This document shows positions 2,032 to 16,401 of a DNA stretch of 64,000 nucleotides, piece by piece. The notes beneath the pieces are model-generated. The model was not told the DNA's origin and ran no database searches. It saw only the letters and a program-made list of their open reading frames with translations. Both the position numbers and the translations under genes were made by a program. The stretch's first letter is position 1; every line of letters starts with the position of its first letter. Source of the stretch: Escherichia phage 4MG; sequence record NC_022968.1. One strand, given 5' to 3'.

Positions 2032-2107
2032 TGGTGGGGCATGAAGGATTCGAACCTTCGACCTTCGGCTTAAGAGGCCGCTACTCTAACCGCTGAGTTA
2101 ATACCCC
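2032..2107 (-). tRNA. tRNA-Lys (anticodon CUU)
   Basis: Hand-folded 76-nt cloverleaf: acceptor GGGGUAU/AUGCCCC, D-stem ACUC/GAGU, anticodon loop CUCUUAA, T-arm GAAGG-UUCGAAU-CCUUC, encoded CCA. Confidence 0.8.
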
Positions 2108-2801: not shown

Positions 2802-2878
2802 TGGTAGTTCTGGCAGGGATTGAACCTGCGACCTCTTCCTTATGAGGGAAGCGCTCTAACCAACTAAGCTACAGAACC
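2802..2878 (-). tRNA. tRNA-Met (anticodon CAU; elongator Met or lysidine-type Ile2 cannot be distinguished)
   Basis: Hand-folded 77-nt cloverleaf: acceptor GGUUCUG/CAGAACU (G1-U72 wobble), D-stem GCUU/GAGC, anticodon stem CUUCC/GGAAG with loop CUCAUAA, T-arm GCAGG-UUCAAUC-CCUGC, encoded CCA. Confidence 0.8.
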
Positions 2879-4144: not shown

Positions 4145-5827
4145 TTACAGTTGAGCGGCTGCTCGTTCACGAATCGTTGTCAGGTCTTCATCGACAATCA
4201 GTTTGCCGTTGTAGAACACACGACGCAGTTCGTTATCGTCAGACTGTACATCTTCAAGCTGACAATTGTCAATCAGTTCTAGCTGACCAAACATATTGCG
4301 AACAACCTTCAGGAAACCTTTTGCAGACTTCTTACCGAGGTCAGTCTTAGGTTCTTTGACAACCATGATCTGCTGACCATCAATAACCGCACCAGTTGCC
4401 TTCACAGCCATACCCAGTGAATCGCGGGTTGTGTACTGGGTAGTAAAGGAACCAACACCGTACACGATATTGCTGGATGCAAAGCCTTTATCTTTCAGAC
4501 GTTCAAAGATGTCTTTTGCACGAGCAACAGTGATAGAGTCACCGTAGATCAGGCCAACATGACTATCCAGAACTTTGTAACCCTTGGAGTTAACTTCACC
4601 ACCAAAGATTTCCCACAGACACTGGATTGCACCTTTGACTTCATGGTCTTGCAGATCGGAAGGCTCAAGATCAAGGTAATCCGTATCTTCATCGAATTCG
4701 ATGTTGTAATACTTACCTTTGACTGATACAACTTCACCTTTCTCGCTTTCCCATGCTGCGTCTTTGGCTTCAGACAGCGTTTCGAAATCACCAATATAAC
4801 GATACCCCGCAATGATATGTTCCGGAATGCCTGAATCAGGACGGAACACAACACGACCGTCACGAGCCATGATTTCTTCTTTCAGAATCAGTGCTGCACG
4901 GGTAATAATCGCCCAGAAGTCATAGCTGTCTGCTACGTAGGAAACAAAACCTTTCGGGAAAATTTCCGTGATGTAGCGTTTCAGGAATTCAACTTCAGCC
5001 AGGAAACGCAGTTCATCCAGGGACAAATCAGGATTTTCAGTTTTCAGGCGACCGACGATAAAGCCAATGTTAGTTGTTGCAACACTGTGTTCTGATGCAG
5101 GAATAGAACCAGCAACGAACTTACCTTTCATGTTGTAATAACGGTTCGCATACAGAATCGCAGGAATGGTATCTGTACCCATTGAGTTGATCAGTTGACC
5201 AAACTCACTCTGTGCCGCGTCGTGAGTACCAGATTCACCGCGATAAGCGAAGCAGTGGTTCTGGAACGGAACATGCAGGTTGTTATCACAAGTTTCGGCA
5301 GCGTATGCTTCAGACAGTTTGCGATACTGCCAGAAGGTAGTTGCAGTTGTGATGGTTTTCCATGTCTCTGCGGAGATCACGCTTTCCAGGAAGTTCGGCA
5401 ACCAGTAAAAATCAGGGTGCGTGTTCTGAATGGTGAACAGCGGAACCTGTACCGGGGACAGAGTGCCTTCAGGAATCGAACGGATTTCCAGTGGCAGGTA
5501 ACCAAGGTCATGCAGCTTTTCAAAGCCCCAGGTTTCAACCATGTCCGGGCCGATGCTCAGTTCACAAATTTCTTTGTACTGTGCGATAGCCGCTTTCTTT
5601 TTCATTTTGAAAAAGTTTTCGTTGAACAGGTCGATCAGGAACCATTTGATGAAACCTTGCAAGCCAGCCATCATCACACGCTGATCGTTATCAGCGAAGT
5701 GAATGAAGTGCTTTGCATTGCGTGGTGTCATGTTGTCCTGAACAATTTCAGAACGTCGGTCATACATGGAGATGTGTGAAGGTTTGTAAAAGTCAGCGAA
5801 TACGAGTGGGCTTTCTTTATGCAGCAT
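4145..5827 (-). CDS. nicotinamide phosphoribosyltransferase (NAMPT) family protein; candidate nicotinamide ADP-ribose transferase of an NAD+ reconstitution pathway
   Basis: 560-aa track ORF with AAGGAGA SD; NAMPT motif set FADFYKPSH, PLEIRSIPEGT, FTIQNTHPDFYWLPNF, AYRGESG, ASEHSVATT, VADSYDFW, FRPDSGIP. Confidence 0.88.
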   Translation of the reverse strand: MLHKESPLVFADFYKPSHISMYDRRSEIVQDNMTPRNAKHFIHFADNDQRVMMAGLQGFIKWFLIDLFNENFFKMKKKAAIAQYKEICELSIGPDMVETWGFEKLHDLGYLPLEIRSIPEGTLSPVQVPLFTIQNTHPDFYWLPNFLESVISAETWKTITTATTFWQYRKLSEAYAAETCDNNLHVPFQNHCFAYRGESGTHDAAQSEFGQLINSMGTDTIPAILYANRYYNMKGKFVAGSIPASEHSVATTNIGFIVGRLKTENPDLSLDELRFLAEVEFLKRYITEIFPKGFVSYVADSYDFWAIITRAALILKEEIMARDGRVVFRPDSGIPEHIIAGYRYIGDFETLSEAKDAAWESEKGEVVSVKGKYYNIEFDEDTDYLDLEPSDLQDHEVKGAIQCLWEIFGGEVNSKGYKVLDSHVGLIYGDSITVARAKDIFERLKDKGFASSNIVYGVGSFTTQYTTRDSLGMAVKATGAVIDGQQIMVVKEPKTDLGKKSAKGFLKVVRNMFGQLELIDNCQLEDVQSDDNELRRVFYNGKLIVDEDLTTIRERAAAQL

Positions 5828-5880
5828 GTTTTGTTTCTCCTTTGTGTGTTTTGATGGGGTGATTCTACACCCCGTTTCGT

Positions 5881-6414
5881 TTAGATGTCAAGTGAAAAAT
5901 CTAAAGATTTAGATTCTTCTGTTACAACCGTTGTTTCTTTAACCAGACGACAGCCTTTCACCTTGATTTCTTTGGCTGGTGACCACTTAGTCGCACGGAT
6001 ATAGAATGTGTTTGCACGAATAACCATGAACCGGGCTACATCTTCAGGTGGTTCCTCGTTAATAAAAATCGCAACACTTTCGTATGCAGGCCACTTCATA
6101 GGGTTTTCATCGGTAACATCGGAATGTATACCATTACCGTTGTTAGTGCGACCCGGTGTAGGCCAGATAGTACAAGGTCGATAGCAGGCGTGGTCATCAG
6201 GAACCTGAATAACGTGATTTTCTAACCACGAGCAAATTTTTTCCAGGTCAAAATCATAATGGTCTTCTTTCAGGTCTTCAATATCTGTACGATATTCAGC
6301 CCCAACACCACACTCACCGATTTGCCCGGTAATATGAGCGCACATGTCACGCTCAAAGTTTCCTGCGTATGAGTCAGTATCGACAACAAAAATAAAACGA
6401 GTTGATTCAGTCAT
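5881..6414 (-). CDS. hypothetical protein (177 aa) embedded between the NAMPT-like and Prs-like genes
   Basis: Track ORF; stop/start abuts 6414-7214; no motif recognised (no Nudix box, no P-loop). Confidence 0.5.
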   Translation of the reverse strand: MTESTRFIFVVDTDSYAGNFERDMCAHITGQIGECGVGAEYRTDIEDLKEDHYDFDLEKICSWLENHVIQVPDDHACYRPCTIWPTPGRTNNGNGIHSDVTDENPMKWPAYESVAIFINEEPPEDVARFMVIRANTFYIRATKWSPAKEIKVKGCRLVKETTVVTEESKSLDFSLDI

Positions 6415-7214
6415 TAAAAATTCTCCGTCCAGTCATGGTATGCGTAGATTTCATCAACCCCGCCATCGAGGATGATTTGTTTCCCGAATGAGAAAATGCC
6501 GTGCGTAACGTAAAGGATAACACGTTTTGCACCATTCTCTTTCAGGGCTTTAGCCAGGGCGATGAAGGTACGACCACCATCACAGATATCATCGACGACA
6601 ACGCATTCGCGTCCTTCAACATCACCAAAGATTGCTGTCCCCGTAATTTCGTTTGTTTTCAGGTCACGAACCTTACCAGCTTCAACCAGAGGGAGTCGCA
6701 TACGGTCGGCAACCTTCTGTGCCTTCTTGCGAGCGCCTGCGTCTGGTGCAACAATGGTCACATCTTTCCCGGCAAGTTGATCATGGAATTCTGCAACAAG
6801 AATCTCTTGTCCACGAATCTGAACATTGTCCAGCAGTGCAGCAGAAACATCACTGTGTGGGTCATCAACAATCACTTTGTCGAAGCCAAGCGAGTTGACG
6901 AGGTTTGCAAAAACCTTGATAGATAGTGACTGTCCAGGTTGCATCACGCGATCCTGACGGGCATACGGGATGTATGGCAGGTGCAGGGTAAACTCAGCAT
7001 GGTTATGCAGCCCTTCAAGACGGGAACATGCATCCACCAACATAGCTAATGCCATGACATCGGTGGAGTTTTTGATTTTTGCAGTGATATCGACGAAACC
7101 AATACCGCCTTTTGGGGCATGTTTCAGATCAATCTCAACCTGTTCCTCACCACCCTTGAAGGTGAAGTGGTTAACAGGCACTTCCAGTTTGTTCAAGCGT
7201 AATTCAATACTCAT
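6414..7214 (-). CDS. ribose-phosphate pyrophosphokinase (Prs) family protein; candidate ADP-ribose pyrophosphokinase
   Basis: 266-aa track ORF, AGGAGA SD; Prs motifs PYIPYARQDR and VVDDICDGGRTF, GAKRV; shorter than cellular Prs. Confidence 0.88.
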   Translation of the reverse strand: MSIELRLNKLEVPVNHFTFKGGEEQVEIDLKHAPKGGIGFVDITAKIKNSTDVMALAMLVDACSRLEGLHNHAEFTLHLPYIPYARQDRVMQPGQSLSIKVFANLVNSLGFDKVIVDDPHSDVSAALLDNVQIRGQEILVAEFHDQLAGKDVTIVAPDAGARKKAQKVADRMRLPLVEAGKVRDLKTNEITGTAIFGDVEGRECVVVDDICDGGRTFIALAKALKENGAKRVILYVTHGIFSFGKQIILDGGVDEIYAYHDWTENF

Positions 7215-7215
7215 T

Positions 7216-7533
7216 TTATTTCTCCTCTATCCAATCGTGAATTTCGTAAACCGTTTTGTTGTGGCCCATATTGGTGCGTGTTGTATCCTTTGTCAACCAT
7301 TTTATTTTCTCAAGGTTACCCACACACCGGGCAACAGTCGCCCTCGATAATCCTGTGGCATCAGCGATACTATCAAGTGACTCATGGTAAGTTTTCCGGA
7401 GAGACTTGAAGTAATGATACTGATGACGCATGTAGAGGTACACAATCTTGTCGTTGGACGAGGCGCAGGTCACCGACAGCAACTTCAGTTCGAAGTTACC
7501 GTAGATGTGCTTACCTGACGCGATGTACCCCAT
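7216..7533 (-). CDS. helix-turn-helix DNA-binding protein, putative transcriptional regulator (105 aa)
   Basis: Track ORF, GGAGGAGAG SD; HTH-like segment SIADATGLSRATVARCVGNL; first gene of leftward block next to divergent control region. Confidence 0.5.
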   Translation of the reverse strand: MGYIASGKHIYGNFELKLLSVTCASSNDKIVYLYMRHQYHYFKSLRKTYHESLDSIADATGLSRATVARCVGNLEKIKWLTKDTTRTNMGHNKTVYEIHDWIEEK

Positions 7534-7757
7534 GTCTCTCCTCCATAGCCTATACTCAAATTGACACTAAGCCTAGTCTCAAATTGATAACAGAAATAAA
7601 TACTATATAAAATAAATAAAACAATACTCTTTTAAAAAACAATAAAACATAAGATCTAAAAACAAGATCTTTTAGTATGATCTATATATTCTACTATCAA
7701 AGAGTCGCTGACTCGATGGAACGCAGTATGAATGAACAAAAATGTGCTGTCAAGTGG

Positions 7758-7785
7758 TTGACTTGAGATTTTGTTCATGTAGAAT
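7758..7785 (+). promoter_or_regulatory. sigma70-like promoter TTGACT-N16-TAGAAT for rightward block
   Basis: Hexamers read directly; 26 nt upstream of first + gene; coordinates +/-2. Confidence 0.5.
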
Positions 7786-7811
7786 GCTCGTATTGTTAAA
7801 GGAGATTGTTA

Positions 7812-8135
7812 ATGTTGTCAAGTAAACAAACAAAAGATATTGGTGATATGGTATGTGGAAAACCTCGTCGTAAACCTGAACAGACTGACGAGGAGAAGTC
7901 AAGACTTATGTTAATTCGTGATGTTTTTCATGAAACAATGAAAGAACAAAATGTGTGTGTTGTGTTACCAGATGGTAAGTCCGAGCAGGAAGTGTTCGGA
8001 GATTACCTCACGTCATTGCGTGGTCGATTAAGACGTAGAAATGTGACTGTGGTGTGGTATAAAGACTTGACAGTGGAACACATCGAGAGTAATAATTGTG
8101 TGGTGGATCTCAGTGAGATTCGTATAACGCTCTAG
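7812..8135 (+). CDS. hypothetical protein (107 aa)
   Basis: Track ORF (ATG at 7812 after AAAGGAG SD); no motif. Confidence 0.5.
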   Translation: MLSSKQTKDIGDMVCGKPRRKPEQTDEEKSRLMLIRDVFHETMKEQNVCVVLPDGKSEQEVFGDYLTSLRGRLRRRNVTVVWYKDLTVEHIESNNCVVDLSEIRITL

Positions 8136-8252
8136 GAAGCGTTGTAAGACGTTTTTATTGTGTGGTAGTACACTTGGGTTACCAACACCTGTTTAATTCA
8201 ATACAGGGCCGCTCAGAGGCTCTGAGGGCTATTGTGGAGGGTTAATTTGGAT

Positions 8253-8522
8253 ATGAAAAGCATTAGCAGTGAAAACTCCATCTACAAAGATGCGTATGAC
8301 GCTTTGGTGGGGTTCATGAAAGCTGCTGAGAAGCGGTATGGTGTGAAACTATACCTTGACAGCAAGGTTGACTGGGGTAAGACATGGATGGACTCCAGTG
8401 TGTACATTCATGGTGATCGCCATGTGGTTAATTTGGTGTGCATGAAACTGATTGTGTGGCAACACCAACAGAAGATTCTGGACGGTATTCTGTACGCTTA
8501 CCCGGCATCGGAGATGAAATGA
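8253..8522 (+). CDS. hypothetical protein (89 aa)
   Basis: Track frame, ATG after GGAGGG SD. Confidence 0.45.
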   Translation: MKSISSENSIYKDAYDALVGFMKAAEKRYGVKLYLDSKVDWGKTWMDSSVYIHGDRHVVNLVCMKLIVWQHQQKILDGILYAYPASEMK

Positions 8523-8803
8523 AAAAGGATATCAAGAAACCAGTTCGTGAGAAGTTCGATACCGAGGCGTTTGTGTTCACAACCGATATTGGTGTGATCA
8601 AAGAGGCGCTTCAGCGACTACATGACCAGGAGGCAGATCCTGAAGCAGAACCACTGACCAAAGACCAGATCTACTGGATGGGTTGGTGGGAGCTTAACAT
8701 GCCGGAGGTTGATCGTCGTAAGATCGAAAAGGTACTCACCTGCGCTAAAGAGAATGCGGCCTTGGGCCTGTATAAGAAAACCACAAAGAGGAAGAAAAAA
8801 TGA
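8519..8803 (+). CDS. hypothetical protein (94 aa), Lys-rich C-terminus
   Basis: ATGA overlap with upstream stop; frame of track ORF 8438-8803. Confidence 0.45.
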   Translation: MKKDIKKPVREKFDTEAFVFTTDIGVIKEALQRLHDQEADPEAEPLTKDQIYWMGWWELNMPEVDRRKIEKVLTCAKENAALGLYKKTTKRKKK

Positions 8804-9039
8804 GCAGACTTTCAAAGCTTCACAGACGAAAGAACATGCTGAAAGAAAAGCAGAAAAATATCACCGCAACTTTCCAAGTGTGCCGTGAAGCTATGAAGGC
8901 AAATCTGATAACGCCTTCACAGAGGCAGATTATCCGTGATATACTCCGGCCTGTGCTGCACGACCTGGAGGGCGAGGTTCGTGATGTTTTATGCCACATT
9001 CAAGAAGAACTTGAAAAATTAAATCAGGAGAATACATGA
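8800..9039 (+). CDS. hypothetical protein (79 aa)
   Basis: Track ORF; coupled start. Confidence 0.45.
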   Translation: MSRLSKLHRRKNMLKEKQKNITATFQVCREAMKANLITPSQRQIIRDILRPVLHDLEGEVRDVLCHIQEELEKLNQENT

Positions 9040-9629
9040 TCGACCACGTTACATCAGACACGCATTGGTGGCACACCAATATTCTGGGTTTTCCCTCGTG
9101 TGATAAATTCCGGAAAAACCTGTACGGTCCAAAGGAAGTCCGTGAAAGTCTGTATGCCATGAATGCTGGCATGATTGAAATCTGGAATAAGCACGTCAAA
9201 CCAGATGATGTCGTAGCACACCTCGGTGATTTCGTGATTGCTTACGGACGCTACATGGAGCCTCGCGTTCGTGACATCTTGGAAAAGATCAACGGAAAGA
9301 TCATTCTGGTTGGTGGAAACCATGACAACCGAGATACGAAACGTATCTTCCGTGAGTTTGGTCACGAAGTTGTTGATTATAAAGAGATTAACTTCAGCAC
9401 TGGAAAAGAGAAGGTGCATGTGTGTATGTCTCACTATCCGTTTGCATCGTGGAATAAAGCTCACCACGGGTCAGTTATGCTGCACGGTCATAGCCACGGC
9501 TCCTATACAGCCCCTGGTGGACGTATTCTGGATGTGGGTTGGGATGTACATGGTCGTCCTCTGACGATGCGTGAAGCCGTCCTGATGTGCCTTGAAAAAC
9601 CAATTTACACTGCTGATCACGGAGAATAA
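9036..9629 (+). CDS. calcineurin-like metallophosphoesterase (candidate RNA/DNA-end phosphatase)
   Basis: Track ORF 197 aa; motifs HLGDFV, GGNHDNRD, HGHSHG typical of metallophosphatases. Confidence 0.7.
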   Translation: MIDHVTSDTHWWHTNILGFPSCDKFRKNLYGPKEVRESLYAMNAGMIEIWNKHVKPDDVVAHLGDFVIAYGRYMEPRVRDILEKINGKIILVGGNHDNRDTKRIFREFGHEVVDYKEINFSTGKEKVHVCMSHYPFASWNKAHHGSVMLHGHSHGSYTAPGGRILDVGWDVHGRPLTMREAVLMCLEKPIYTADHGE

Positions 9630-9630
9630 T

Positions 9631-9987
9631 ATGCACAACAAAGTACGTAATTTCTTACCTAAGAAAACATCTAAGTCTTTTTATGCTACGATACACATTG
9701 CTGGGGATCTGGAATCAGCAAGACCATTGCTCCGTCAATGGACTATGCGTGGTGCTTGTGTACAACTAGTCGGGTGTGATTACATCTACACTGGCGGCTC
9801 TGAACGGGGTATGACAGTTCGCATCATGCAGTATCCTCGTTTTGAACGACCGGAGCACGAGATCCTTGAAATGGCGGTTGAACTTGCTAACTTTTTAGCT
9901 CAGGAACTCTGCCAGATCAGTTTCAGCATTGAAACTCCTTACAATACAACGTATTACCAAGCAGAAGGTTACGAAAAGCGATCATGA
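9631..9987 (+). CDS. hypothetical protein (118 aa)
   Basis: ATG after GGAG SD; frame of track ORF. Confidence 0.4.
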   Translation: MHNKVRNFLPKKTSKSFYATIHIAGDLESARPLLRQWTMRGACVQLVGCDYIYTGGSERGMTVRIMQYPRFERPEHEILEMAVELANFLAQELCQISFSIETPYNTTYYQAEGYEKRS

Positions 9988-10187
9988 AAATTCACAACAT
10001 AACCAAGGACAGGATTCATTTCATAATGGATTCAGGGGCTTACGGTTCAATTTCAAAGGTGGATGCCATGAAGTTTCTGTATGCTTCAAATATTCCTCAG
10101 GCAAAGCTTGACTCCCGTTCAGGAGAGTGTATTATTGACTCTATTACGAATACACAAGAACTGTGGGAGATATATCATGAAATTTAA
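9984..10187 (+). CDS. hypothetical protein (67 aa)
   Basis: Track ORF; coupled start. Confidence 0.4.
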   Translation: MKIHNITKDRIHFIMDSGAYGSISKVDAMKFLYASNIPQAKLDSRSGECIIDSITNTQELWEIYHEI

Positions 10188-11097
10188 CGTAGATGATCTG
10201 GTTGCTAAAAAGCTGGTAACCAAAAAGACTTACACCGAAGGCCCGTTCGCGGGTCTGTCTGTACTGAAATATAAGAACAATGTGTTCTGGGATAACCTGT
10301 GGCACACAGATGCGCGTCTGCTTGAGTGCCGTGGCATGGTTGTTGATGCAGAGGACAACGTTGTTATCTGGCCTTTCACGAAGATTTTCAATCGCTTCGA
10401 GAACAACACTGATGTCCCACAGGACAAGTTGGTGTGCGTACCTCGTAAAGTCAATGGCTTTATGGCAGCAATGAGTGTTTACAATGGTGAAGTAATTGTG
10501 TCTACCACAGGAACACTTGATTCTGAGTTTGCACAAATGGCAAAAGATAAGATCACTGGTTCCATGCCTGAAGGGATGCTTGACTATTTCGTGAAGAATG
10601 CTGGACCTTGCACACTTATCTTTGAAATATGTGATGAGAGTGATCCCCACATTGTCGCAGAAGAAGCGGGTGCTTATCTGATTGGTTGCCGGGTCCACTT
10701 AAGTGGTGGTATGCTTCCAGAGTGGGACCTTGATAGAGTTGCAAATCGTTATGGTTGGAAACGTGCTGACTGGGACAACATGATCTTCAGCGATGTTGTT
10801 AAGGCTTCCAAGTCAGTTAATCATGAAGGTTTTGTTGTTCGTGATGTTGACACCAATGAGCTACTGCTGAAAATTAAGTCTCCACATTACCTGGCGAAGA
10901 AGTTCCTGATGCGTGGTAGCCAGAACAAGTGGGACCTGATTTGGGACAACCCGAAAGAAGCCAAAAAACGTATCGACGAAGAGTTCTACGAACTTCTTGA
11001 CTGGCTGCGCTGGGCTTACGAAAAAGATGAGTGGGCGGCTAAGGACTCTCAGTATCGTCGTATGATTATTGAAAAATATTTTGAGGATCGCAAATGA
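10177..11097 (+). CDS. RNA ligase-like nucleotidyltransferase (Rnl2-like)
   Basis: 306 aa; covalent nucleotidyltransferase motifs KVNG (motif I), NHEGFVVRD (motif IV), LKIKSPHY (motif V). Confidence 0.55.
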   Translation: MKFNVDDLVAKKLVTKKTYTEGPFAGLSVLKYKNNVFWDNLWHTDARLLECRGMVVDAEDNVVIWPFTKIFNRFENNTDVPQDKLVCVPRKVNGFMAAMSVYNGEVIVSTTGTLDSEFAQMAKDKITGSMPEGMLDYFVKNAGPCTLIFEICDESDPHIVAEEAGAYLIGCRVHLSGGMLPEWDLDRVANRYGWKRADWDNMIFSDVVKASKSVNHEGFVVRDVDTNELLLKIKSPHYLAKKFLMRGSQNKWDLIWDNPKEAKKRIDEEFYELLDWLRWAYEKDEWAAKDSQYRRMIIEKYFEDRK

Positions 11098-11330
11098 CAC
11101 TCATGTCAATCAAGAACAAACTTGACCGGGCTGTTTCCATAATTACCAGACTTATCATTGGGTTATCTGTGTTTATCTTCTTATTTGCACTGATAATCTT
11201 TGTGAATTGGGTTATCGAAACTCTGGGTGGTAAAGTAATATTCGGTGGAATTCTGCTCATCATTGCGGTGATTGGCTGTTATGGTGTTGGATGTTCCATC
11301 TACCCACACAAAGAAAAGGGTGAAAAATGA
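11094..11330 (+). CDS. small membrane protein (78 aa)
   Basis: Track ORF; two hydrophobic helices. Confidence 0.45.
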   Translation: MTLMSIKNKLDRAVSIITRLIIGLSVFIFLFALIIFVNWVIETLGGKVIFGGILLIIAVIGCYGVGCSIYPHKEKGEK

Positions 11331-11671
11331 TCATCTGGCTTGATGACTTGAGAGACCCAAAAGACTACGGGTATCCTGATGCCTTGTGGTTCAAGACCTC
11401 TCAGAAGTTTATGGATTTTCTTGATAATCGGTCAAAGTTCTATCGTTATGTCACAGAGTGGCATTTTGATAATGACCTAGGTGAAGATTCAGAAAAGGAG
11501 GGCTATGACTGCCTACTGGCCTTGGAAGAGAAGCTTGTGTATGGGAAACTTCCTGTGCATGATGCTAAACTCTATGTCCATACGTCTAACCCTTCTGCGG
11601 CACAAAAGTTCATGCTTGCAAAAGAGAGCTTCTTGAAGTATCGTATCACGATCTTAAGAAACAATTACTGA
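11327..11671 (+). CDS. hypothetical protein (114 aa)
   Basis: Track ORF; coupled start. Confidence 0.45.
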   Translation: MIIWLDDLRDPKDYGYPDALWFKTSQKFMDFLDNRSKFYRYVTEWHFDNDLGEDSEKEGYDCLLALEEKLVYGKLPVHDAKLYVHTSNPSAAQKFMLAKESFLKYRITILRNNY

Positions 11672-11680
11672 GGAGAAGAG

Positions 11681-12088
11681 ATGGAAAAGACTCTGATCAT
11701 CCTGCGTGGTGTGTCTGGTGCTGGTAAGTCTACAGTAGCAGATATGCTGGCAGAGGATTTGTGGCCTGTCTATGAAGCAGATAAATTCCACTACACAGAA
11801 GATGGCGTGTACGACTGGAAACCTGAAAACATGCAGGCTGCACACGCATGGTGTCAGTCAGAGGTCAAAGATATGATGGGGTGGAATATCAGCAGGATCA
11901 TCGTATCTAACACCTCTACCAGTGAAAAAGAACTGAAGCCGTATCTTGATCTCGCAGCGGAGAACGGGTATCGTGTCATCAGCTTGGTGGTAGAAAACCG
12001 TCATGGCAATGACTCCATTCACAGCGTTCCGCAGGAAACCCGCGATGCTCAAGAGCGTCGTCTGCGTAACTCATTGAAATTACAGTAA
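11681..12088 (+). CDS. P-loop kinase, polynucleotide 5'-kinase-like
   Basis: 135 aa; Walker A GVSGAGKST at N-terminus; sits between RNA ligase-like and Sir2-like genes. Confidence 0.55.
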   Translation: MEKTLIILRGVSGAGKSTVADMLAEDLWPVYEADKFHYTEDGVYDWKPENMQAAHAWCQSEVKDMMGWNISRIIVSNTSTSEKELKPYLDLAAENGYRVISLVVENRHGNDSIHSVPQETRDAQERRLRNSLKLQ

Positions 12089-12098
12089 GGGGAAACAA

Positions 12099-12875
12099 TT
12101 GAGGCGTTTAATTGTTATTAGTGGTGCAGGCTTCTCTGCTGAAAGCGGTGTTCGTACATTCCGTACTGATACAGACTCCGGAAAGGCTTTGTGGGATGAG
12201 TACGACCTTGAAGAGGTCTGTAATATCCATGCTTTCCGTGGTAATTTCTATCACAAAACGCACATGTTTTATAACAAGCGTCGTGTAGAACTGCAAACTG
12301 TGCATCCGAATGCTGCACATATGCGTGTTGCTGAGTGGTATAAAAACTACCCAAAACAGGTTGTTAATCTGACGACAAACGTAGATGACCTGCTGGAACG
12401 TGCTGGTGTTCCTAAGGAAGATACTCTGTATATCCACGGATATCTGAAAGAACTTCGGTATAAACTTCACGAAGATTCTGAAGAGCAGTTAGTTGACATT
12501 GGTTACAATGAAGTAGATCCTGATGAATTTCACTGGTGCAAACCAAATGTGGTCTTCTTTGGTGAGGCTGCTCCAGCATATAACGACCTATACTCAACCC
12601 TAGATAGCCTGACATCTGAAGACATGGTGATTGTTGTTGGATGCTCAAACACAGTTATCAACTTCAACTGGGAGCTTTTCCCAGCATCAAGGATGGGTAC
12701 TAAGATTGTTGTGGTTAACCCTAATGTTCGCTACGATGAACAGTTGATGTACGAAGACGCTGGTGTTGTTGTATACCGAACTGGTGCTGTAGATGCGTTC
12801 AGCAACCCTGGTCTCATCAAAATGGTTGAGGATCACCTTGAAGGTAAAACCTCATTGCAGAAGAAGGAGAAATAA
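12099..12875 (+). CDS. Sir2-family (sirtuin-like) NAD+-dependent protein
   Basis: 258 aa, TTG start after AAGGGG SD; GAGFSAESGVRTFR NAD-binding signature, YIHGYL, VVGCSNTV, VVVNPN; no Cys4 zinc module. Confidence 0.7.
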   Translation: MRRLIVISGAGFSAESGVRTFRTDTDSGKALWDEYDLEEVCNIHAFRGNFYHKTHMFYNKRRVELQTVHPNAAHMRVAEWYKNYPKQVVNLTTNVDDLLERAGVPKEDTLYIHGYLKELRYKLHEDSEEQLVDIGYNEVDPDEFHWCKPNVVFFGEAAPAYNDLYSTLDSLTSEDMVIVVGCSNTVINFNWELFPASRMGTKIVVVNPNVRYDEQLMYEDAGVVVYRTGAVDAFSNPGLIKMVEDHLEGKTSLQKKEK

Positions 12876-14179
12876 TGTCAATTAGTTTAGACACACCAAC
12901 ACTATACGCCATTAACAAGGACGGATCGTATCAAGTTTGGAATGTAACCACAGAAGGTGATGAGGTTGTCGTTTCTTTCGGTAAGGAAAATGGAAAGATT
13001 CAACAAAAGCGCACCAAGTGTGAAATGAAAAACATTGGTCGTTCCAATGAAACCACCGCTGAGTTCCAGGCCGTCCTGGAGGCCCGGTCTAAGTGGGAGA
13101 AACAGGTCCGTTTAGGTTATCGTGAGACCAAAGAGGAGTTACAGACGGAAGAGAACTTCTCTCCTATGCTGGCACACGATGCGATCAAACGGTCAAAGTC
13201 AATCGTCTATCCTGCGTATATTCAGCCAAAGCTCGATGGTGTTCGTGCTCTTGTGACGCTTGACAAGGACGGCATCCCGGTGTTTAATAGCCGTGGCAAC
13301 AAAACATACCCAGTACAGGGCGCTTTATTGCAGCAAGTTAAAGAACTTGCAGAGCACACAGGGTTTGACAAGTTCGATGGTGAACTGTATATTCATGGTC
13401 TAAGCCTTCAGAAGATTGTTGCTTTGGCTAAGAAGTGGCGCACCCCTGAACAGATTGAAGCTGAGATCGAGAAAGACTATCAGGCTGATATCAAGCGCTG
13501 TAATAAGGCGGTTGCCGATGGTGAGCATCTCTGGAAAGACTTTGATGGTAATGTGTGGGCTGTTTCCACGTATAAACCAGTAAAAGACGTTGACCGCTTC
13601 AGTGGTTATTCCAGTCTTGACCTAGAGTATCACATCTTTGACATTCCTGTGAATGCACAAAGCCCTTGGTACTCTTATGAGCATGATAAGACCAGACATC
13701 AAGATCTGTTGGTGGTTGCCGATGCTGTTGAATGTGAACTTAACGTACCTATGGTGAAAGTTATCCACGGGATCGTGGTATCTTCTGAAAGGGAAGTTAA
13801 ATGGTCCATCGGTAAATACATGGAGCAGGGATTTGAAGGTTCAATCATCCGAAACTTCAAAGGTGTCTACGAATTTGGTCAACGATCCTCTGATCTCCAA
13901 AAATGGAAACAGTTCCAGGATGGTGAGGCAAAAGTTCTTGATTCTGTAGAGGATAAGAACGGTGAGGGTGTCCTGCTCTGTGAAGAAAGAGATGGTACTC
14001 GATTCAACTGCAAAATGAAAGGCACTCACGCAGAGCGTTCTCAGGCGAAGATGCTATTGTTGGTTGGCGATTTCATCAACTTTACATTCCAGTCGCGTAC
14101 TGATGATGGTGTACCTCAGTTCCCGGTGGGGCAGAGTGTACGTGAACTTGATACATTAACATGGGAGCCAGTATACTAA
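12875..14179 (+). CDS. ATP-dependent DNA ligase
   Basis: 434 aa; motif I KLDGVR, motif IV-like FEGSIIR; size typical of phage ATP ligases. Confidence 0.8.
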   Translation: MSISLDTPTLYAINKDGSYQVWNVTTEGDEVVVSFGKENGKIQQKRTKCEMKNIGRSNETTAEFQAVLEARSKWEKQVRLGYRETKEELQTEENFSPMLAHDAIKRSKSIVYPAYIQPKLDGVRALVTLDKDGIPVFNSRGNKTYPVQGALLQQVKELAEHTGFDKFDGELYIHGLSLQKIVALAKKWRTPEQIEAEIEKDYQADIKRCNKAVADGEHLWKDFDGNVWAVSTYKPVKDVDRFSGYSSLDLEYHIFDIPVNAQSPWYSYEHDKTRHQDLLVVADAVECELNVPMVKVIHGIVVSSEREVKWSIGKYMEQGFEGSIIRNFKGVYEFGQRSSDLQKWKQFQDGEAKVLDSVEDKNGEGVLLCEERDGTRFNCKMKGTHAERSQAKMLLLVGDFINFTFQSRTDDGVPQFPVGQSVRELDTLTWEPVY

Positions 14180-14625
14180 TGGGATTCTATAAACGTAAAC
14201 CTCAGGAAGTTGAAGCACACGTATTCAACGGATCGAGCACAGGGGTTGGTCAGGTGACCAAGTGGATCGAGACCGGGGTCTGGAAAGACGCTGAGATCCA
14301 CACACGGGATATCCGAAATATGGACGTGAATGGCGTTCAGGCGTTTCCTGGTGATTACATAGTAAAAGTGGGTGACCAGTTCACAGCAATGTCCCCACAA
14401 GCGTTCAGCGACCTTTATGAGGCTGTTAGCGATGAAGATCGTCTTCCAGGGGACTACAAAGCAAAGAACGTAGTGATGGGTGACAAAGTTGAGATGTGGG
14501 GTAAAGACTACATCGTAAAAGGTCACAAAATCAGTGGTGACGATATTATCCTCACCCTTGATGACGGATCTAACATTCAGCTTCGCGGCGAAGCAACCGT
14601 GAAGGTAACAGAGGTACGTGCATAA
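14179..14625 (+). CDS. hypothetical protein (148 aa)
   Basis: ATG after GGGAG SD in frame of track ORF. Confidence 0.45.
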   Translation: MGFYKRKPQEVEAHVFNGSSTGVGQVTKWIETGVWKDAEIHTRDIRNMDVNGVQAFPGDYIVKVGDQFTAMSPQAFSDLYEAVSDEDRLPGDYKAKNVVMGDKVEMWGKDYIVKGHKISGDDIILTLDDGSNIQLRGEATVKVTEVRA

Positions 14626-14996
14626 TGATCTGGTACTGGCTGGCGCTCTTAGGCGCAACACTGGTCACAGGGGGCGGTATTTATACCGCTTTCCGTTTCC
14701 GGAAAGACAAGCTCGATGACTTTATCGACTGGATTCAGGGTAAAGTAAAACGACTGCTGTTGATTTGGGCTGTGGTGTTGGGCCTGGTAACGCTGGCCCT
14801 TACCAAACCGTTGTGGAACACCATGACCTGTCAGTTCGACGGCATGGCCTACAAGGTGAATACGTCTTATTCTTGGTATAAGAATGGGACATATGGCGAC
14901 AAATGCCTGTTCGTTGCTAAGAACGGTGCTCTTTTGCCATTACGAATTATCCGTGACCAACCGGAAGGTGATCACGCAACAGATGTAATTAATTAA
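14625..14996 (+). CDS. membrane protein (123 aa)
   Basis: Track ORF; two predicted TM helices. Confidence 0.45.
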   Translation: MIWYWLALLGATLVTGGGIYTAFRFRKDKLDDFIDWIQGKVKRLLLIWAVVLGLVTLALTKPLWNTMTCQFDGMAYKVNTSYSWYKNGTYGDKCLFVAKNGALLPLRIIRDQPEGDHATDVIN

Positions 14997-15005
14997 GGAG
15001 AATCA

Positions 15006-15695
15006 ATGAGTAAGGTTTACGAAACACTTTTAGCGATGACAAAACCAACAGATCTGTACGCATATGCGGAGCATGTTATCGAATGGAACCATGTTGCATA
15101 TCGTGCTCGCAATAATGTGGCAACACCATTCGATCTGCAATGGGGCTTTATTCGTGAAGAATTCAACGAACTCGTTGACGCACTCCGTGTTGGTGACCGT
15201 ATCGAAACTGTTGACGCTGCCTGTGATCTCTTTGTTGTAGCTTCATACGCTTGCCAGTTGAAGAGTCCTGAGTATCTTCGTGAAGCCTGTATTCCTTCAC
15301 CGACACTGACGTTCACTATTGGCGATCTTGAGCACAACCTGTATGGCAATATGCGAGACCCGGTTTATGTTCTTAAGCTGGTAACTGCATTATGTTATCG
15401 CCTTGATATTAATCTTGACTACAATATGCGACAGGTGTTACATTCAAACGATACCAAATACCCATATGTGCAAGATATCCTTGCCTTGTGGCCTGGTAAG
15501 GCGAAAGCCGAAGCTTTACGTCAAGAATGTAAGGCAATCGAAGATCGTTCCAATGGTCGTTATGAGGGTGTTGGTTTCCGCGAGGTAATTGATATCCGCA
15601 ACCCGGATGTTAAAGGTTCACGCCTTGTCTTCTTCGATAGAAACGGAAAAATCATGAAGCCAAGCACTTTCGAAAGTCCGAAAATTATTGCTTGA
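15006..15695 (+). CDS. mazG: MazG-like nucleoside triphosphate pyrophosphohydrolase
   Basis: 229 aa; EExxE-type motif REEFNELVDA followed by ETVDAACD. Confidence 0.55.
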   Translation: MSKVYETLLAMTKPTDLYAYAEHVIEWNHVAYRARNNVATPFDLQWGFIREEFNELVDALRVGDRIETVDAACDLFVVASYACQLKSPEYLREACIPSPTLTFTIGDLEHNLYGNMRDPVYVLKLVTALCYRLDINLDYNMRQVLHSNDTKYPYVQDILALWPGKAKAEALRQECKAIEDRSNGRYEGVGFREVIDIRNPDVKGSRLVFFDRNGKIMKPSTFESPKIIA

Positions 15696-15719
15696 CAATG
15701 GATAAGGGGTCTGTATAAT
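15692..15719 (+). promoter_or_regulatory. strong sigma70-like promoter TTGACA-N16-TATAAT
   Basis: Consensus hexamers read directly, 30 nt upstream of 15750 ORF; coordinates +/-2. Confidence 0.55.
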
Positions 15720-15749
15720 GGCCCCTATCAAGACAGAGAGGAGAAAGCA

Positions 15750-15971
15750 GTGGAAGAAATTATTGATTACCCAGAGATTATTGCGTTAGCTAATCGCCTC
15801 GGCATTACTATCGTCAGTCGTGGTCCAAATACACGTTATCTGATCCGCTTCACCATGAAACGTCGCTGGGGTGGCGCTAAGAAGTACGCTTACGAATGTA
15901 CGCTTGGCACACTGACAGCGTATGTTGACCAGATTGAGCGCTCTGGTGGAAAGATTGTCGGCATTGATTAA
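15750..15971 (+). CDS. hypothetical protein (73 aa)
   Basis: Track ORF. Confidence 0.45.
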   Translation: MEEIIDYPEIIALANRLGITIVSRGPNTRYLIRFTMKRRWGGAKKYAYECTLGTLTAYVDQIERSGGKIVGID

Positions 15972-15977
15972 AAGTGT

Positions 15978-16005
15978 TTGACAAAAAGAATTAAAAAGCT
16001 ATACT
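15978..16005 (+). promoter_or_regulatory. sigma70-like promoter TTGACA-N16-TATACT
   Basis: Hexamers read directly upstream of 16039 ORF; coordinates +/-2. Confidence 0.5.
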
Positions 16006-16038
16006 GAACAGACTAAATAAACAGAGGAGAAACAAAAC

Positions 16039-16401
16039 ATGGCACGTACCGCAAAAATCAAAGTAGCACTGATCACCTCCCTGCCTTCTGACCCGGCATC
16101 CCGCGAGCGTCTGAAGTCAACCGTTAACGAAATCGTTGATCTACAGCGTCAAATCGCTGACCTGAAAGACCAGATCAAGGACATTCGTGCTGTGGAAAAA
16201 GAAAACCACAACATCTCTCCTAAGTTCCTGAATTCTCTGGTAAAACGTGAGTACGATGTGCGTTATGAAGCAGAGAAGAAGACTGCTGCACTCGATGCAG
16301 AGCAAGAGATCTTCACCGAAGCGGATATCCTGTTCGGTCGCGGCAAGCCTGCAAATGTCGCACAAACCGAAGAAGATGACGGTGCTGAGGACGCTGAATA
16401 A
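16039..16401 (+). CDS. hypothetical protein with acidic C-terminal tail (120 aa)
   Basis: Track ORF, GAGGAGA SD; coiled-coil-like, tail EEDDGAEDAE. Confidence 0.5.
   Translation: MARTAKIKVALITSLPSDPASRERLKSTVNEIVDLQRQIADLKDQIKDIRAVEKENHNISPKFLNSLVKREYDVRYEAEKKTAALDAEQEIFTEADILFGRGKPANVAQTEEDDGAEDAE

Follow-up and report, generated by a model that had tools for sequence, protein, structure and literature searches.

The window that we analyzed is a stretch of 64,000 nucleotides from Escherichia phage 4MG (NC_022968.1), a member of the Vequintavirinae (Mydovirus-like). From position 8438 to 15695, its genes abut or overlap one another in a tightly packed, co-directional array that ends with a gene for a MazG-like protein. 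NAMPT-like and Prs-like NAD genes lie directly upstream of this array. The initial annotation, made from the letters and ORF translations, had proposed that three ORFs encode a phosphatase, an RNA-ligase-like protein, and a P-loop kinase that heal and seal RNA ends. All three were present on the strand and at the coordinates it gave, and their translations contained every motif that it named, with HLGDFV, GGNHD, and GHSHG in the 197-residue product of 9036-9629; RKVNG, EGFVVRD, and KIKSP in the 306-residue product of 10177-11097; and the Walker A motif GVSGAGKST in the 135-residue product of 11681-12088. It had mentioned neither the cREC gene between the ligase and kinase genes nor the Sir2 gene just downstream. 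The features are given below, where locus counts refer to a survey of 70 IMG/VR viral loci carrying the ligase subfamily of the window (30-96% identity).

9036..9629, + strand: metallophosphoesterase, assigned to the aq_1665/1XM7 family, 197 aa (Pfam Metallophos, phrog_547, metal-ligand motifs)
9631..9987, + strand: 118-aa protein, phrog_4848 (8e-49); in 5 of 70 ligase loci
9984..10187, + strand: 67-aa ORF, lineage-specific (matches only PHROG families without assigned function); in 1 of 70 loci
10177..11097, + strand: predicted Rnl1-type ATP-dependent RNA ligase, 306 aa (phrog_562, T4 Rnl1 profile and fold match)
11094..11330, + strand: 78-aa hydrophobic (membrane-like) small protein, lineage-specific (phrog_30308); in 1 of 70 loci
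11327..11671, + strand: cREC domain protein, 114 aa (PF20274 cREC_REC, 6.9e-18)
11681..12088, + strand: predicted minimal Pnk-type P-loop kinase, 135 aa (AAA_33, phrog_505, profile and fold matches)
12099..12875, + strand: divergent Sir2-family protein, 258 aa (Pfam SIR2 2.3e-23, phrog_2162 1.5e-111)
12875-14179, within the same array: ATP-dependent DNA ligase
15006..15695, + strand: MazG-like nucleotide pyrophosphohydrolase, 229 aa (Pfam PRA-PH 1.8e-4)

The 118-residue protein had no Pfam or NCBIfam match; its gene, inserted in this lineage between those of the phosphoesterase and ligase, is probably outside the core. The 3' end of the 67-residue ORF overlaps the start of the ligase gene. If translated from the upstream ATG at 10081, the ligase would have 338 residues, but we preferred the start at 10177 because the consensus of the homologues opens with MKFNVDDL, which corresponds to this position.

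The ligase sequence matched phrog_562, 'RNA ligase and tail fiber protein attachment catalyst' (5.5e-65). As a single sequence it had no match in Pfam, NCBIfam, or the PDB; most of its homologues carry PF09511, and a family profile searched against the PDB matched T4 Rnl1 and no other entry (3e-10, residues 48-236). In this alignment, catalytic Lys91 of motif I (KVNG) corresponded to Lys99 of T4 Rnl1, Glu150 of motif III to Glu159, Glu217-Gly218 of motif IV to Glu227-Gly228, and Lys232/Lys234 of motif V to Lys240/Lys242. An AF2 model (pLDDT 93) used as a Foldseek query found T4 Rnl1 as the best match (6e-13), followed by fungal Trl1 ligase domains, Rnl3, Rnl5, and Rnl2. Sequence and model comparisons thus agree in identifying the 10177-11097 product as a remote T4 Rnl1-type RNA ligase, which is predicted to carry out sealing. 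Its helical C-terminal region has ~70 residues, compared with ~120 in T4 Rnl1, where the C-terminal domain confers tRNA specificity; because the region in the phage protein is far shorter, a tRNA target is only putative.

The 135-residue protein matched AAA_33 (5e-8) and phrog_505, 'polynucleotide kinase' (7e-8), and its family profile matched Pnkp1 (4xrp, 1.7e-7), T4 Pnk (5e-5), and the kinase domain of Clostridium thermocellum Pnkp (CthPnkp; 1.6e-4) in the PDB. The same three enzymes were the top Foldseek matches (TM 0.72-0.77) to an AF2 model with a pLDDT of 90.8. The P-loop and the general-base Asp34, which aligns with Asp35 of T4 Pnk, are invariant in the family. A histidine occupies the position of Arg38 in T4 Pnk, which we counted against a role in repair, and there is no fused phosphatase domain. 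Sequence and modeled fold identify it as a minimal Pnk-type polynucleotide kinase, predicted to heal 5' ends.

The 9036-9629 product matched Metallophos (PF00149; 28.4 bits versus a cutoff of 21.5, 2.7e-6) and phrog_547, 'phosphoesterase' (3e-50). Asp8-x-His10, Gly64-Asp65, Gly94-Asn95-His96, His133, and Gly151-His152-x-His154 are invariant among 34 homologues with 31-84% identity, and the binuclear-metal site is complete. The family profile matched PDB 1xm7 (7e-25), which places the protein in the family of aq_1665, itself functionally uncharacterized, and not in the lambda-phosphatase/CthPnkp clade, to which the family-profile search gave no specific similarity. Given an uncharacterized family and no similarity to the CthPnkp clade, an activity on RNA 3' ends is inferred from gene context alone; the predicted role is that of a 2',3'-cyclic phosphodiesterase and/or 2'/3'-phosphatase.

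That context is strongly conserved. Of the 70 loci, 66 carry the phosphoesterase gene less than 7 kb from the ligase gene, 59 carry the kinase gene next to it, and 57 carry both. The genes are usually adjacent and nearly always share a strand; the median gap to the ligase is 133 bp for the phosphoesterase and 0 bp for the kinase, and the order is phosphoesterase-ligase-kinase in some lineages and kinase-ligase-phosphoesterase in others. This grouping lies far beyond chance, given that 57 of the 70 viral loci, which are diverged and vary in gene order, share it. One locus (L068) encodes a 430-residue kinase-ligase fusion. In a reciprocal survey of 80 loci chosen via the phosphoesterase, 42 had the ligase. 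Thus, the phosphoesterase, ligase, and kinase genes are functionally linked.

The initial annotation's reading of the three genes as an RNA repair set is supported: family and fold are Rnl1-type for the ligase and Pnk-type for the kinase, the phosphoesterase site is intact, linkage holds in both directions, and a kinase-ligase fusion exists. Two competing readings of the locus bear on these results. First, the genes might have unrelated functions and merely share an early-gene or counter-defense island, with the ligase serving as a tail-fiber attachment factor like T4 gp63, the P-loop protein as a nucleotide kinase, and the phosphoesterase as an enzyme that degrades nucleotide second messengers or dephosphorylates proteins. 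GenBank does annotate the ligase as 'RNA ligase and tail fiber protein attachment catalyst', calcineurin-like phosphodiesterases of other phages have been proposed to attack defense signals (PMC7824862), and 38 of the 80 phosphoesterase loci, many of them on short contigs, had no ligase in the flank. Against mere co-location, the genes stay adjacent across lineages even where ligase identity is 30% and their order differs, and kinase and ligase can be fused. Moreover, the ligase homologue of Bas54, another member of the Vequintavirinae, tolerates insertions, unlike rnlA of T4 and Bas37, which argues against an essential role in virion assembly in Vequintavirinae-type phages. We regard this reading as very unlikely.

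Second, the kinase and phosphoesterase could clean 5'-OH/3'-phosphate nicks in DNA during repair or replication, acting with a DNA ligase three genes downstream, while the 'RNA ligase' is incidental or acts on DNA. The gene at 12875-14179 is a genuine ATP-dependent DNA ligase in the same array, and T4 Pnk acts on DNA ends too in vitro. The phosphoesterase also had a weak, sub-threshold match (E 0.004, 16.6 bits versus a cutoff of 150) to the NCBIfam model for PdeM, a ligase-associated DNA-damage endonuclease. In Pseudomonas putida, a metallophosphoesterase occurs in a DNA repair operon with DNA ligase (PMC7826289). By contrast, the best fold and sequence matches of the 10177-11097 protein were all RNA ligases, with DNA ligases scoring far lower; the L068 fusion joins the kinase to the RNA ligase and not to a DNA ligase; and a DNA ligase gene was near the RNA ligase in 29 of 70 loci and near the phosphoesterase in 11 of 80, compared with the 42 that had the RNA ligase. 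DNA-end processing is, in our judgment, highly improbable.

The remaining genes of the array bear on how RNA repair might proceed in the Vequintavirinae. The cREC_REC match exceeds a cutoff of 27 bits, and the protein has acidic residues Asp6-Asp7 and Asp48/Asp50; cREC is predicted to be a metal-independent cyclic phosphodiesterase whose substrates would be RNA 2',3'-cyclic phosphates or ADP-ribose 1''-2'' cyclic phosphate (PMC7824862, PMC9503650). The Sir2 protein keeps the GAGxS and catalytic-histidine motifs but lacks the usual four zinc-binding cysteines, with only a single cysteine following the catalytic histidine, and such atypical Sir2 proteins are predicted to remove RNA 2'-phosphates using NAD+, like KptA/Tpt1 (PMC9503650, section 3.7.3). 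In Klebsiella phage VLCpiM5b, the MazG-like product carries the annotation 'nucleotide pyrophosphohydrolase'. These proteins could support a yeast-like Trl1/Tpt1-type pathway, a variant of the repair explanation and compatible with it. In this pathway, cREC or the metallophosphoesterase would convert the 2',3'-cyclic phosphate to a 3'-OH/2'-phosphate end, and the junction sealed by the ligase would carry a 2'-phosphate. The divergent Sir2 would strip this phosphate by transferring ADP-ribosyl from NAD+, and the ADP-ribose cyclic phosphate formed on the side would be handled by cREC, the phosphoesterase, or MazG. Consistent with this published prediction (PMC9503650, section 3.7.3), the array itself contains the cREC, Sir2, and MazG-like genes, NAMPT-like and Prs-like genes occur less than 7 kb from the ligase in 34 and 24 of the 70 loci, respectively, and fungal Trl1 ligase domains almost equal T4 Rnl1 as fold matches. 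However, Sir2 and cREC were each found in 10 of 70 ligase loci (cREC exclusively in Vequintavirinae-type loci) and MazG in 12, and the rarity of Sir2 and cREC beside the common phosphoesterase and kinase indicates that the core works without them. Nor do they strictly co-occur: cREC is present and Sir2 absent in L011 and L012, and the reverse holds for L013-L015. The cREC activity is itself a prediction, and we know of no sirtuin that acts on RNA 2'-phosphate. A Trl1/Tpt1-type route is possible but doubtful. Across the 70 loci, the triad of phosphoesterase, ligase, and kinase forms the widespread core, to which particular clades add sirtuin, cREC, and MazG.

Comparison with known systems helps to place this core. 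Phage T4 uses Pnkp (PseT) and Rnl1 (gp63) to repair tRNAs cut by the anticodon nuclease PrrC. The chemistry expected here is the same, namely 5' phosphorylation, 3' phosphate removal, and Rnl1-type sealing, and the ligase and kinase belong to the families of T4 Rnl1 and the T4 Pnk kinase domain. The kinase, however, stands alone at 135 residues without a HAD phosphatase, 3' healing being assigned to a separate metallophosphoesterase, and the ligase has 306 residues and KVNG in motif I (Asn for Asp), compared with 374 and KEDG in T4 Rnl1. Identity to the T4 proteins is ~20-30% over parts only, and phmmer searches with them found no match in the window. CthPnkp combines the same enzyme classes, a P-loop kinase, a binuclear metallophosphoesterase that hydrolyzes 2',3'-cyclic phosphates to heal 3' ends, and an ATP-dependent ligase (PMC2190708), but in one polypeptide, whereas the window has three small genes with an aq_1665-family phosphoesterase and an Rnl1-type ligase. 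The Pnkp1-Rnl-Hen1 system likewise splits its activities over polypeptides (PMC4411300), and Pnkp1 is the best PDB sequence match of the kinase; we detected no Hen1-like methyltransferase among the neighboring ORFs scanned. Fungal and plant Trl1 (ligase-kinase-CPD) and Tpt1 share the Rnl1 ligase clade with the window, and the L068 relative has a kinase-ligase fusion. The window proteins are separate and include neither a 2H cyclic phosphodiesterase nor Tpt1/KptA, and NAD+-dependent 2'-phosphate removal would be possible if Sir2 replaces Tpt1.

The initial annotation had further suggested a differently assembled repair system. Separate small proteins and a metallophosphoesterase in place of a HAD phosphatase bear this out. 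The use of a metallophosphoesterase is not new in principle, CthPnkp being a precedent, and the array is an instance of a sirtuin-centered, NAD-linked RNA repair neighborhood predicted in 2022 for phage V5 and Proteus phage Mydo, which has the same genes (T4-like tRNA ligase, cREC, nucleotide kinase, atypical sirtuin, MazG, and calcineurin-like phosphoesterase) in the same phage group, Vequintavirinae/Mydovirus (Iyer, Burroughs, Anantharaman, and Aravind, 2022, Viruses 14:1977; PMC9503650, section 3.7.3, type 2). That study, computational only like ours, placed the sirtuin at the center and called the phosphoesterase 'occasional', whereas phosphoesterase, ligase, and kinase occurred in 66, 70, and 59 of our 70 loci. 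The same RNA-repair prediction was made independently for Pakpunavirus (PMC12846349).

The genes and their conserved linkage, the family and fold assignments, and the intact catalytic residues are direct observations, and they make it likely that the array is a phage cassette for healing and sealing RNA, most likely tRNA. We infer its substrates, reaction order, and biological target as follows. [quoted passage not shown] The Pnk-type kinase would phosphorylate the 5'-OH; the phosphoesterase, like the metallophosphoesterase domain in bacterial Pnkp, would open and remove a cyclic or terminal phosphate and so leave a 3'-OH that can be ligated; and the Rnl1-type ligase would self-adenylylate on Lys91, pass AMP to the 5'-phosphate, and seal the break. 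In the Vequintavirinae, cREC, Sir2, and MazG, together with the NAMPT- and Prs-like genes upstream, may provide, or tidy up after, an NAD+-dependent 2'-phosphate route.

Our literature search found no biochemical or genetic test of the proteins of this module. In Bas54, the genes annotated as sirtuin, hypothetical, RNA ligase, polynucleotide kinase, and phosphoesterase, whose orthology to those of the window is judged from annotation, sizes, and order, tolerate transposon insertions on E. coli K-12, which fits a conditional counter-defense role. Against such a role, insertions in them showed no depletion on clinical isolates (adjusted p 0.75-1.0 in the comparisons retrieved).

The phosphoesterase, ligase and kinase ORFs that the initial annotation had grouped as an RNA end-healing and sealing set were found on the plus strand at the positions listed here, and every motif quoted for them was present in the translations. 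This three-gene set stood, but the annotation had overlooked a cREC_REC protein and a Sir2 protein in the same co-directional array (~8438-15695), in which consecutive ORFs adjoin or share a few bases.

Features of the array and its surroundings in the window
2032-2107 and 2802-2878, minus strand: tRNA-Lys (anticodon CTT) and tRNA-Met (CAT), a few kb from the repair cassette
4145-5827, minus strand: NAMPT-like gene (NAPRTase family, 1.6e-27)
5881-6414, minus strand: 177-aa ORF between the NAMPT-like and Prs-like genes, no family match
6414-7214, minus strand: Prs-like ribose-phosphate pyrophosphokinase
7216-7533, minus strand: small wHTH protein, weak match to 'wHTH-PRTase associated'
9036-9629, plus strand: metallophosphoesterase
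9631-9987, 9984-10187 and 11094-11330, plus strand: three small interleaved ORFs, found in 1-5 of the 70 ligase loci surveyed
10177-11097, plus strand: Rnl1-type ligase, 306 aa
11327-11671, plus strand: cREC_REC protein ('cyclic-phosphate processing receiver'; PF20274, 6.9e-18), between ligase and kinase
11681-12088, plus strand: Pnk-type kinase
12099-12875, plus strand: Sir2 protein, downstream of the kinase
12875-14179, plus strand: ATP-dependent DNA ligase, 434 aa, sharing one base with the Sir2 stop codon (the codon's last, the DNA ligase gene's first)
15006-15695, plus strand: MazG-like pyrophosphatase, end of the array
15692-15719, plus strand: sigma-70 promoter of perfect consensus (TTGACA-16-TATAAT), right where the MazG-like gene ends

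The promoter at the end of the MazG-like gene may start the next transcription unit; a promoter and terminator scan of 7200-16200 revealed no other clear operon boundaries, and terminators in that region were at chance level. The GC skew of the window reverses at ~8 kb and again at ~55 kb; the first reversal coincides with a minus-to-plus switch of gene strand at ~7.5-7.8 kb, and GC content falls to 0.41 at 54-56 kb. The 3-kb region shares ~86% DNA identity with Klebsiella, Raoultella, Cronobacter and Enterobacter phages of the Vequintavirinae, relatives that include Klebsiella phage VLCpiM5b (genus Mydovirus), and the ligase is 93% identical at the protein level to that of Enterobacter phage EC152. 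These identities indicate that the window is part of an rV5/Mydo-like myovirus genome of roughly 145 kb.

The kinship of the ligase to T4 RNA ligase 1 was revealed only by a homologue profile and by predicted structure. As a single sequence, the ligase matched phrog_562 (the T4 gp63 'RNA ligase and tail fiber attachment catalyst' family; 5.5e-65) and had no match in Pfam (E<=0.01), NCBIfam or the PDB, though PF09511 is a precomputed match in most of its homologues. Similarly, phmmer searches of all window ORFs with full-length T4 Pnk and T4 Rnl1 returned no match at E<=1, and pairwise BLAST detected weak similarity between these T4 enzymes and the window proteins. A family profile from an alignment of 28 homologues (51-89% identity) had T4 RNA ligase 1 as its only match in the PDB (two sequences, E 3e-10), with residues 48-236 aligned. 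In this alignment, Lys99, Glu159, Glu227-Gly228 and Lys240/Lys242 of T4 Rnl1 correspond to Lys91, Glu150, Glu217-Gly218 and Lys232/Lys234 of the window ligase, and these residues of motifs I (K91-V-N-G), III, IV and V are invariant in the 28 homologues. Foldseek comparison of an AlphaFold model (pLDDT 93) with the PDB placed T4 Rnl1 at the top (E 6e-13, TMq 0.63-0.66), followed by fungal Trl1 ligase domains and then archaeal Rnl3, Naegleria Rnl5 and T4 Rnl2, with DNA ligases scoring far lower. The window enzyme differs from T4 Rnl1 in length (306 versus 374 aa) and in motif I (KVNG versus KEDG). Only ~70 helical residues (237-306) follow motif V, the T4 profile alignment ends at residue 236, and both model and alignment lack the T4-type C-terminal tRNA-specificity domain of ~120 aa. 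Profile and model thus assign the protein as a remote and shorter RNA ligase of the Rnl1 clade, predicted to catalyze ATP-dependent self-adenylylation and sealing of 3'-OH and 5'-phosphate RNA ends.

The kinase matched AAA_33 and phrog_505 ('polynucleotide kinase'). In the PDB, the strongest matches of its profile were polynucleotide kinases of RNA repair: Pnkp1 from the Pnkp1-Rnl-Hen1 complex at 1.7e-7, T4 Pnk at 5e-5 and the kinase domain of CthPnkp at 1.6e-4. Gly13, Gly15 and Lys16 of the P-loop, Asp34, His37 and an NRHG motif are invariant in 26 aligned homologues. Asp34 aligns by HMMER with the general base Asp35 of T4 Pnk, and invariant His37 occupies the position of T4 Arg38, a residue that contacts the phosphoacceptor and has no Arg equivalent here. 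T4 Pnk, the CthPnkp kinase and Pnkp1 made up the top five Foldseek hits (TM 0.72-0.77) of the kinase model (pLDDT 90.8); PFKFB, PSTK and gluconate kinases followed close behind, so the margin of the Pnk-type fold assignment is modest. At 135 aa, the protein has no second domain and hence no phosphatase of the T4-Pnkp type.

The phosphoesterase exceeded the Pfam cutoff for Metallophos (PF00149; 28.4 versus 21.5 bits) and matched phrog_547 ('phosphoesterase'). The DxH, GD, GNH[DE], H and GHxH motifs for a binuclear metal site are all present, and the metal ligands Asp8-x-His10, Gly64-Asp65, Gly94-Asn95-His96, His133 and Gly151-His152-x-His154 are invariant in 34 aligned homologues (31-84% identity). 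Retention of every canonical ligand predicts an active enzyme that is kept under selection. Among solved structures, the one close relative is aq_1665 of Aquifex aeolicus (1XM7; profile E 7e-25), which comes from structural genomics and has no assigned function; homology therefore cannot tell the substrate. GpdQ, MJ0936 and YfcE were distant matches (E>=1e-3), and neither lambda phosphatase nor the Pnkp phosphatase was among the seven PDB matches at E<=1. Relatives of the enzyme are encoded in more than 561 viral loci, and this phage gene context offers a functional hypothesis for the orphan aq_1665 family.

We searched six-frame ORFs of 70 IMG/VR viral loci carrying the ligase subfamily (30-96% identity) with the window proteins, and multiple features of these loci point to functional coupling of ligase, kinase and phosphoesterase. 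First, 66 of the 70 loci have the phosphoesterase no more than 7 kb from the ligase (median gap 133 bp), 59 have the kinase there (median gap 0 bp) and 57 have both. Second, the ligase strand is shared by the phosphoesterase in 66 of 67 cases and by the kinase in 58 of 59; in one rV5-type locus (L029), the gene pair is on the opposite strand. Third, adjacency is kept through rearrangement: the window and its relatives have the order phosphoesterase-ligase-kinase, and many other lineages have kinase-ligase-phosphoesterase. Finally, a single 430-aa ORF (6530-7819) in locus L068 (IMGVR_UViG_3300048597_000133) fuses a kinase (residues 4-123) to a ligase (157-406); kinase and ligase are fused in fungal Trl1 too, in the reverse domain order. 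Adjacency that survives rearrangement, combined with a fusion, is the classical sign of functional coupling. This fusion and the adjacency in 59 of 70 loci are the context for predicting that the kinase phosphorylates 5'-OH polynucleotide ends. Retained linkage and the fusion also disfavour an account in which the three genes are unrelated neighbours and the ligase serves tail-fibre attachment, as T4 gp63 does; we assign that account a low probability.

Kinase counts come from first-round phmmer matches (59 loci) and, later, from the kinase alignment with a coverage filter. An iterated kinase HMM was discarded when it drifted to 128 matches that included generic P-loop ORFs and the fused ligase. 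Single-linkage clustering of ORFs merged the ligase and kinase families as a result of the L068 fusion, and antisense shadow ORFs that posed as 'conserved families' were ignored.

The ligase subfamily was present in 605 phage records of GenBank, for phages of Escherichia, Pseudomonas, Vibrio, Klebsiella, Acinetobacter and other hosts; Pseudomonas phage PaoP5, for example, has the order 'phosphohydrolase', three small ORFs, RNA ligase, 138-aa protein, Prs-like gene and NAMPT. In a reciprocal set of 80 loci picked via the phosphoesterase, mostly at 32-42% identity and many on short contigs, 42 had the ligase, 19 this kinase and 11 a DNA ligase. Linkage to the ligase (66/70 and 42/80) is the only observation from which we infer 2',3'-cyclic phosphodiesterase and 3'/2'-phosphomonoesterase activity of the phosphoesterase on RNA ends. 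The array might instead serve DNA-end repair together with the nearby DNA ligase, which lies 1.8 kb from the RNA ligase; a DNA ligase also occurs within 7 kb of the RNA ligase in 29 of the 70 loci. We consider this improbable, as phosphoesterase loci carry the RNA ligase far more often than a DNA ligase, the fusion partner of the kinase in L068 is the RNA ligase, and the ligase fold is of the RNA-ligase type.

The cREC, Sir2 and MazG genes, by contrast with the triad, are near the ligase in only 10-12 of the 70 loci, all of Vequintavirinae type, and Sir2 and cREC do not strictly co-occur. The conserved core is the phosphoesterase-ligase-kinase triad and not the sirtuin, a refinement added by the present survey. 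The NAD-binding motif (GAGxS) and the catalytic His (in YIHG) are retained in the window Sir2 protein, which is an atypical sirtuin in that a single cysteine stands in place of the usual four-Cys zinc module. Directly upstream of the array, a divergently transcribed block (4145-7533) holds the NAMPT-like, Prs-like and wHTH genes, and the NAMPT-like and Prs-like pair resembles phage genes for NAD+ salvage or reconstitution. Of the 70 loci, 34 have a NAMPT-like gene and 24 a Prs-like gene no more than 7 kb from the ligase, and such genes are also near it in PaoP5 and Vibrio phage Ceto. The 177-aa ORF between the two window genes, shared by just 2 of the 70 related loci, may have been inserted or may represent a split-off NAMPT N-terminus; VLCpiM5b has a longer NAMPT (604 aa) that directly abuts its Prs gene. 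VLCpiM5b also carries tRNA-Thr, tRNA-Lys and two tRNA-Met genes at the place of the window tRNA genes. Carrying tRNA genes has also been proposed as a way for phages to counter tRNA-cleaving defences.

Families, intact active sites and linkage support the RNA healing and sealing reading of the initial annotation, and from them we infer the substrates and a tRNA target. In the pathway that we consider most likely, the kinase would put a phosphate back on the 5' end, the metallophosphoesterase would open the 3'-terminal phosphate and take it off, and the Rnl1-type ligase would seal the break by the lysyl-AMP route. Precedent for a metallophosphoesterase as 3'-end healer comes from the central domain of Clostridium thermocellum Pnkp, a Mn2+/Ni2+-dependent enzyme that acts both as a 2',3'-cyclic phosphodiesterase and as a monoesterase; lambda phosphatase shares a cyclic phosphodiesterase activity of this kind (PMC2190708). 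The system is predicted to work like T4 Pnkp and Rnl1 without being a member of that system; as the initial annotation had suggested, it is built differently, with separate ORFs, no bifunctional kinase-HAD phosphatase polypeptide and a metallophosphoesterase in a gene of its own. It is likewise predicted to work like bacterial Pnkp/Hen1 without belonging there, as it has three separate ORFs and a phosphoesterase of a different clade; none of 20 ORFs scanned across 4145-15695 matched a methyltransferase (Hen1).

The extra Vequintavirinae genes suggest a second, NAD+-linked branch. A published proposal has the sirtuin acting on a 2'-phosphate in the manner of KptA/Tpt1 and cREC resolving cyclic phosphates (PMC9503650, PMC7824862). 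This branch is plausible but weaker than the core, because Sir2, cREC and MazG are missing from most core loci and Sir2-cREC co-occurrence is not strict. A bolder reading, which we advance as a speculative one with the balance against it, is a distinct tRNA repair machine of three proteins (an aq_1665-type metallophosphoesterase, a short Rnl1-type ligase and a 135-aa mini-Pnk), in the Vequintavirinae perhaps coupled to the sirtuin. There, the atypical sirtuin would strip the RNA 2'-phosphate with NAD+, cREC would dispose of the by-product, cyclic ADP-ribose phosphate, and the adjacent NAD-synthesis genes would supply NAD+. We know of no sirtuin that removes an RNA 2'-phosphate. If true, the three-protein machine would be a widespread third architecture beside T4 Pnkp-HAD/Rnl1 and bacterial Pnkp/Hen1 and would give the orphan 1XM7 family a function.

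Transposon-insertion data are available for a Vequintavirinae phage, Bas54, in which genes bas54_0207-0211 (annotated as sirtuin, hypothetical, RNA ligase, polynucleotide kinase and phosphoesterase) were matched to the window genes by annotation, sizes and order, not by alignment. Insertions in these genes were abundant on E. coli K-12 and were not depleted on clinical isolates in the comparisons retrieved; insertions in rnlA of T4 and of Bas37 were not tolerated.

The novelty suggested by the initial annotation did not hold, as both the idea and the same neighbourhood had already been published as predictions. Burroughs and Aravind are said to have given, in 2016, what is likely the first description of such gene contexts, and the idea has been in the comparative-genomics literature since 2016-2022. 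A 'type 2' sirtuin-linked RNA repair neighbourhood was published for Escherichia phage V5 and Proteus phage Mydo (Iyer et al., 2022; PMC9503650), and the window is an instance of it, with ligase, cREC, kinase, sirtuin, MazG and phosphoesterase all on the plus strand between 9036 and 15695. That paper presents the system as sirtuin-linked, whereas our survey identifies the triad as the conserved core and the phosphoesterase as a member of the aq_1665 family. A Pakpunavirus genome paper annotated an adjacent kinase and ligase as tRNA repair, the kinase having no T4 3'-phosphatase domain (PMC12846349). We found no experimental work on the window's module in the literature.

Defences that cleave tRNA, among them PrrC, RloC, PARIS, retron-associated nucleases and Cas13, are now known to be common, and phage repair of such damage has, to our knowledge, been demonstrated only for the T4 Pnkp/Rnl1 pair. 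The worthwhile questions are biochemical: RNA 3'-end healing by an aq_1665-type enzyme, the tRNA specificity of a short Rnl1 and the action of the sirtuin on RNA. Hundreds of sequenced phages of Escherichia, Klebsiella, Pseudomonas and Vibrio carry the module, and several of these phages are candidates for phage therapy. Should the prediction hold, the module would rank as the most widespread alternative repair kit, its presence would help to forecast the hosts that a phage can overcome, and it would provide a function for the aq_1665 family together with a compact ligase, kinase and phosphatase set of possible use as reagents.
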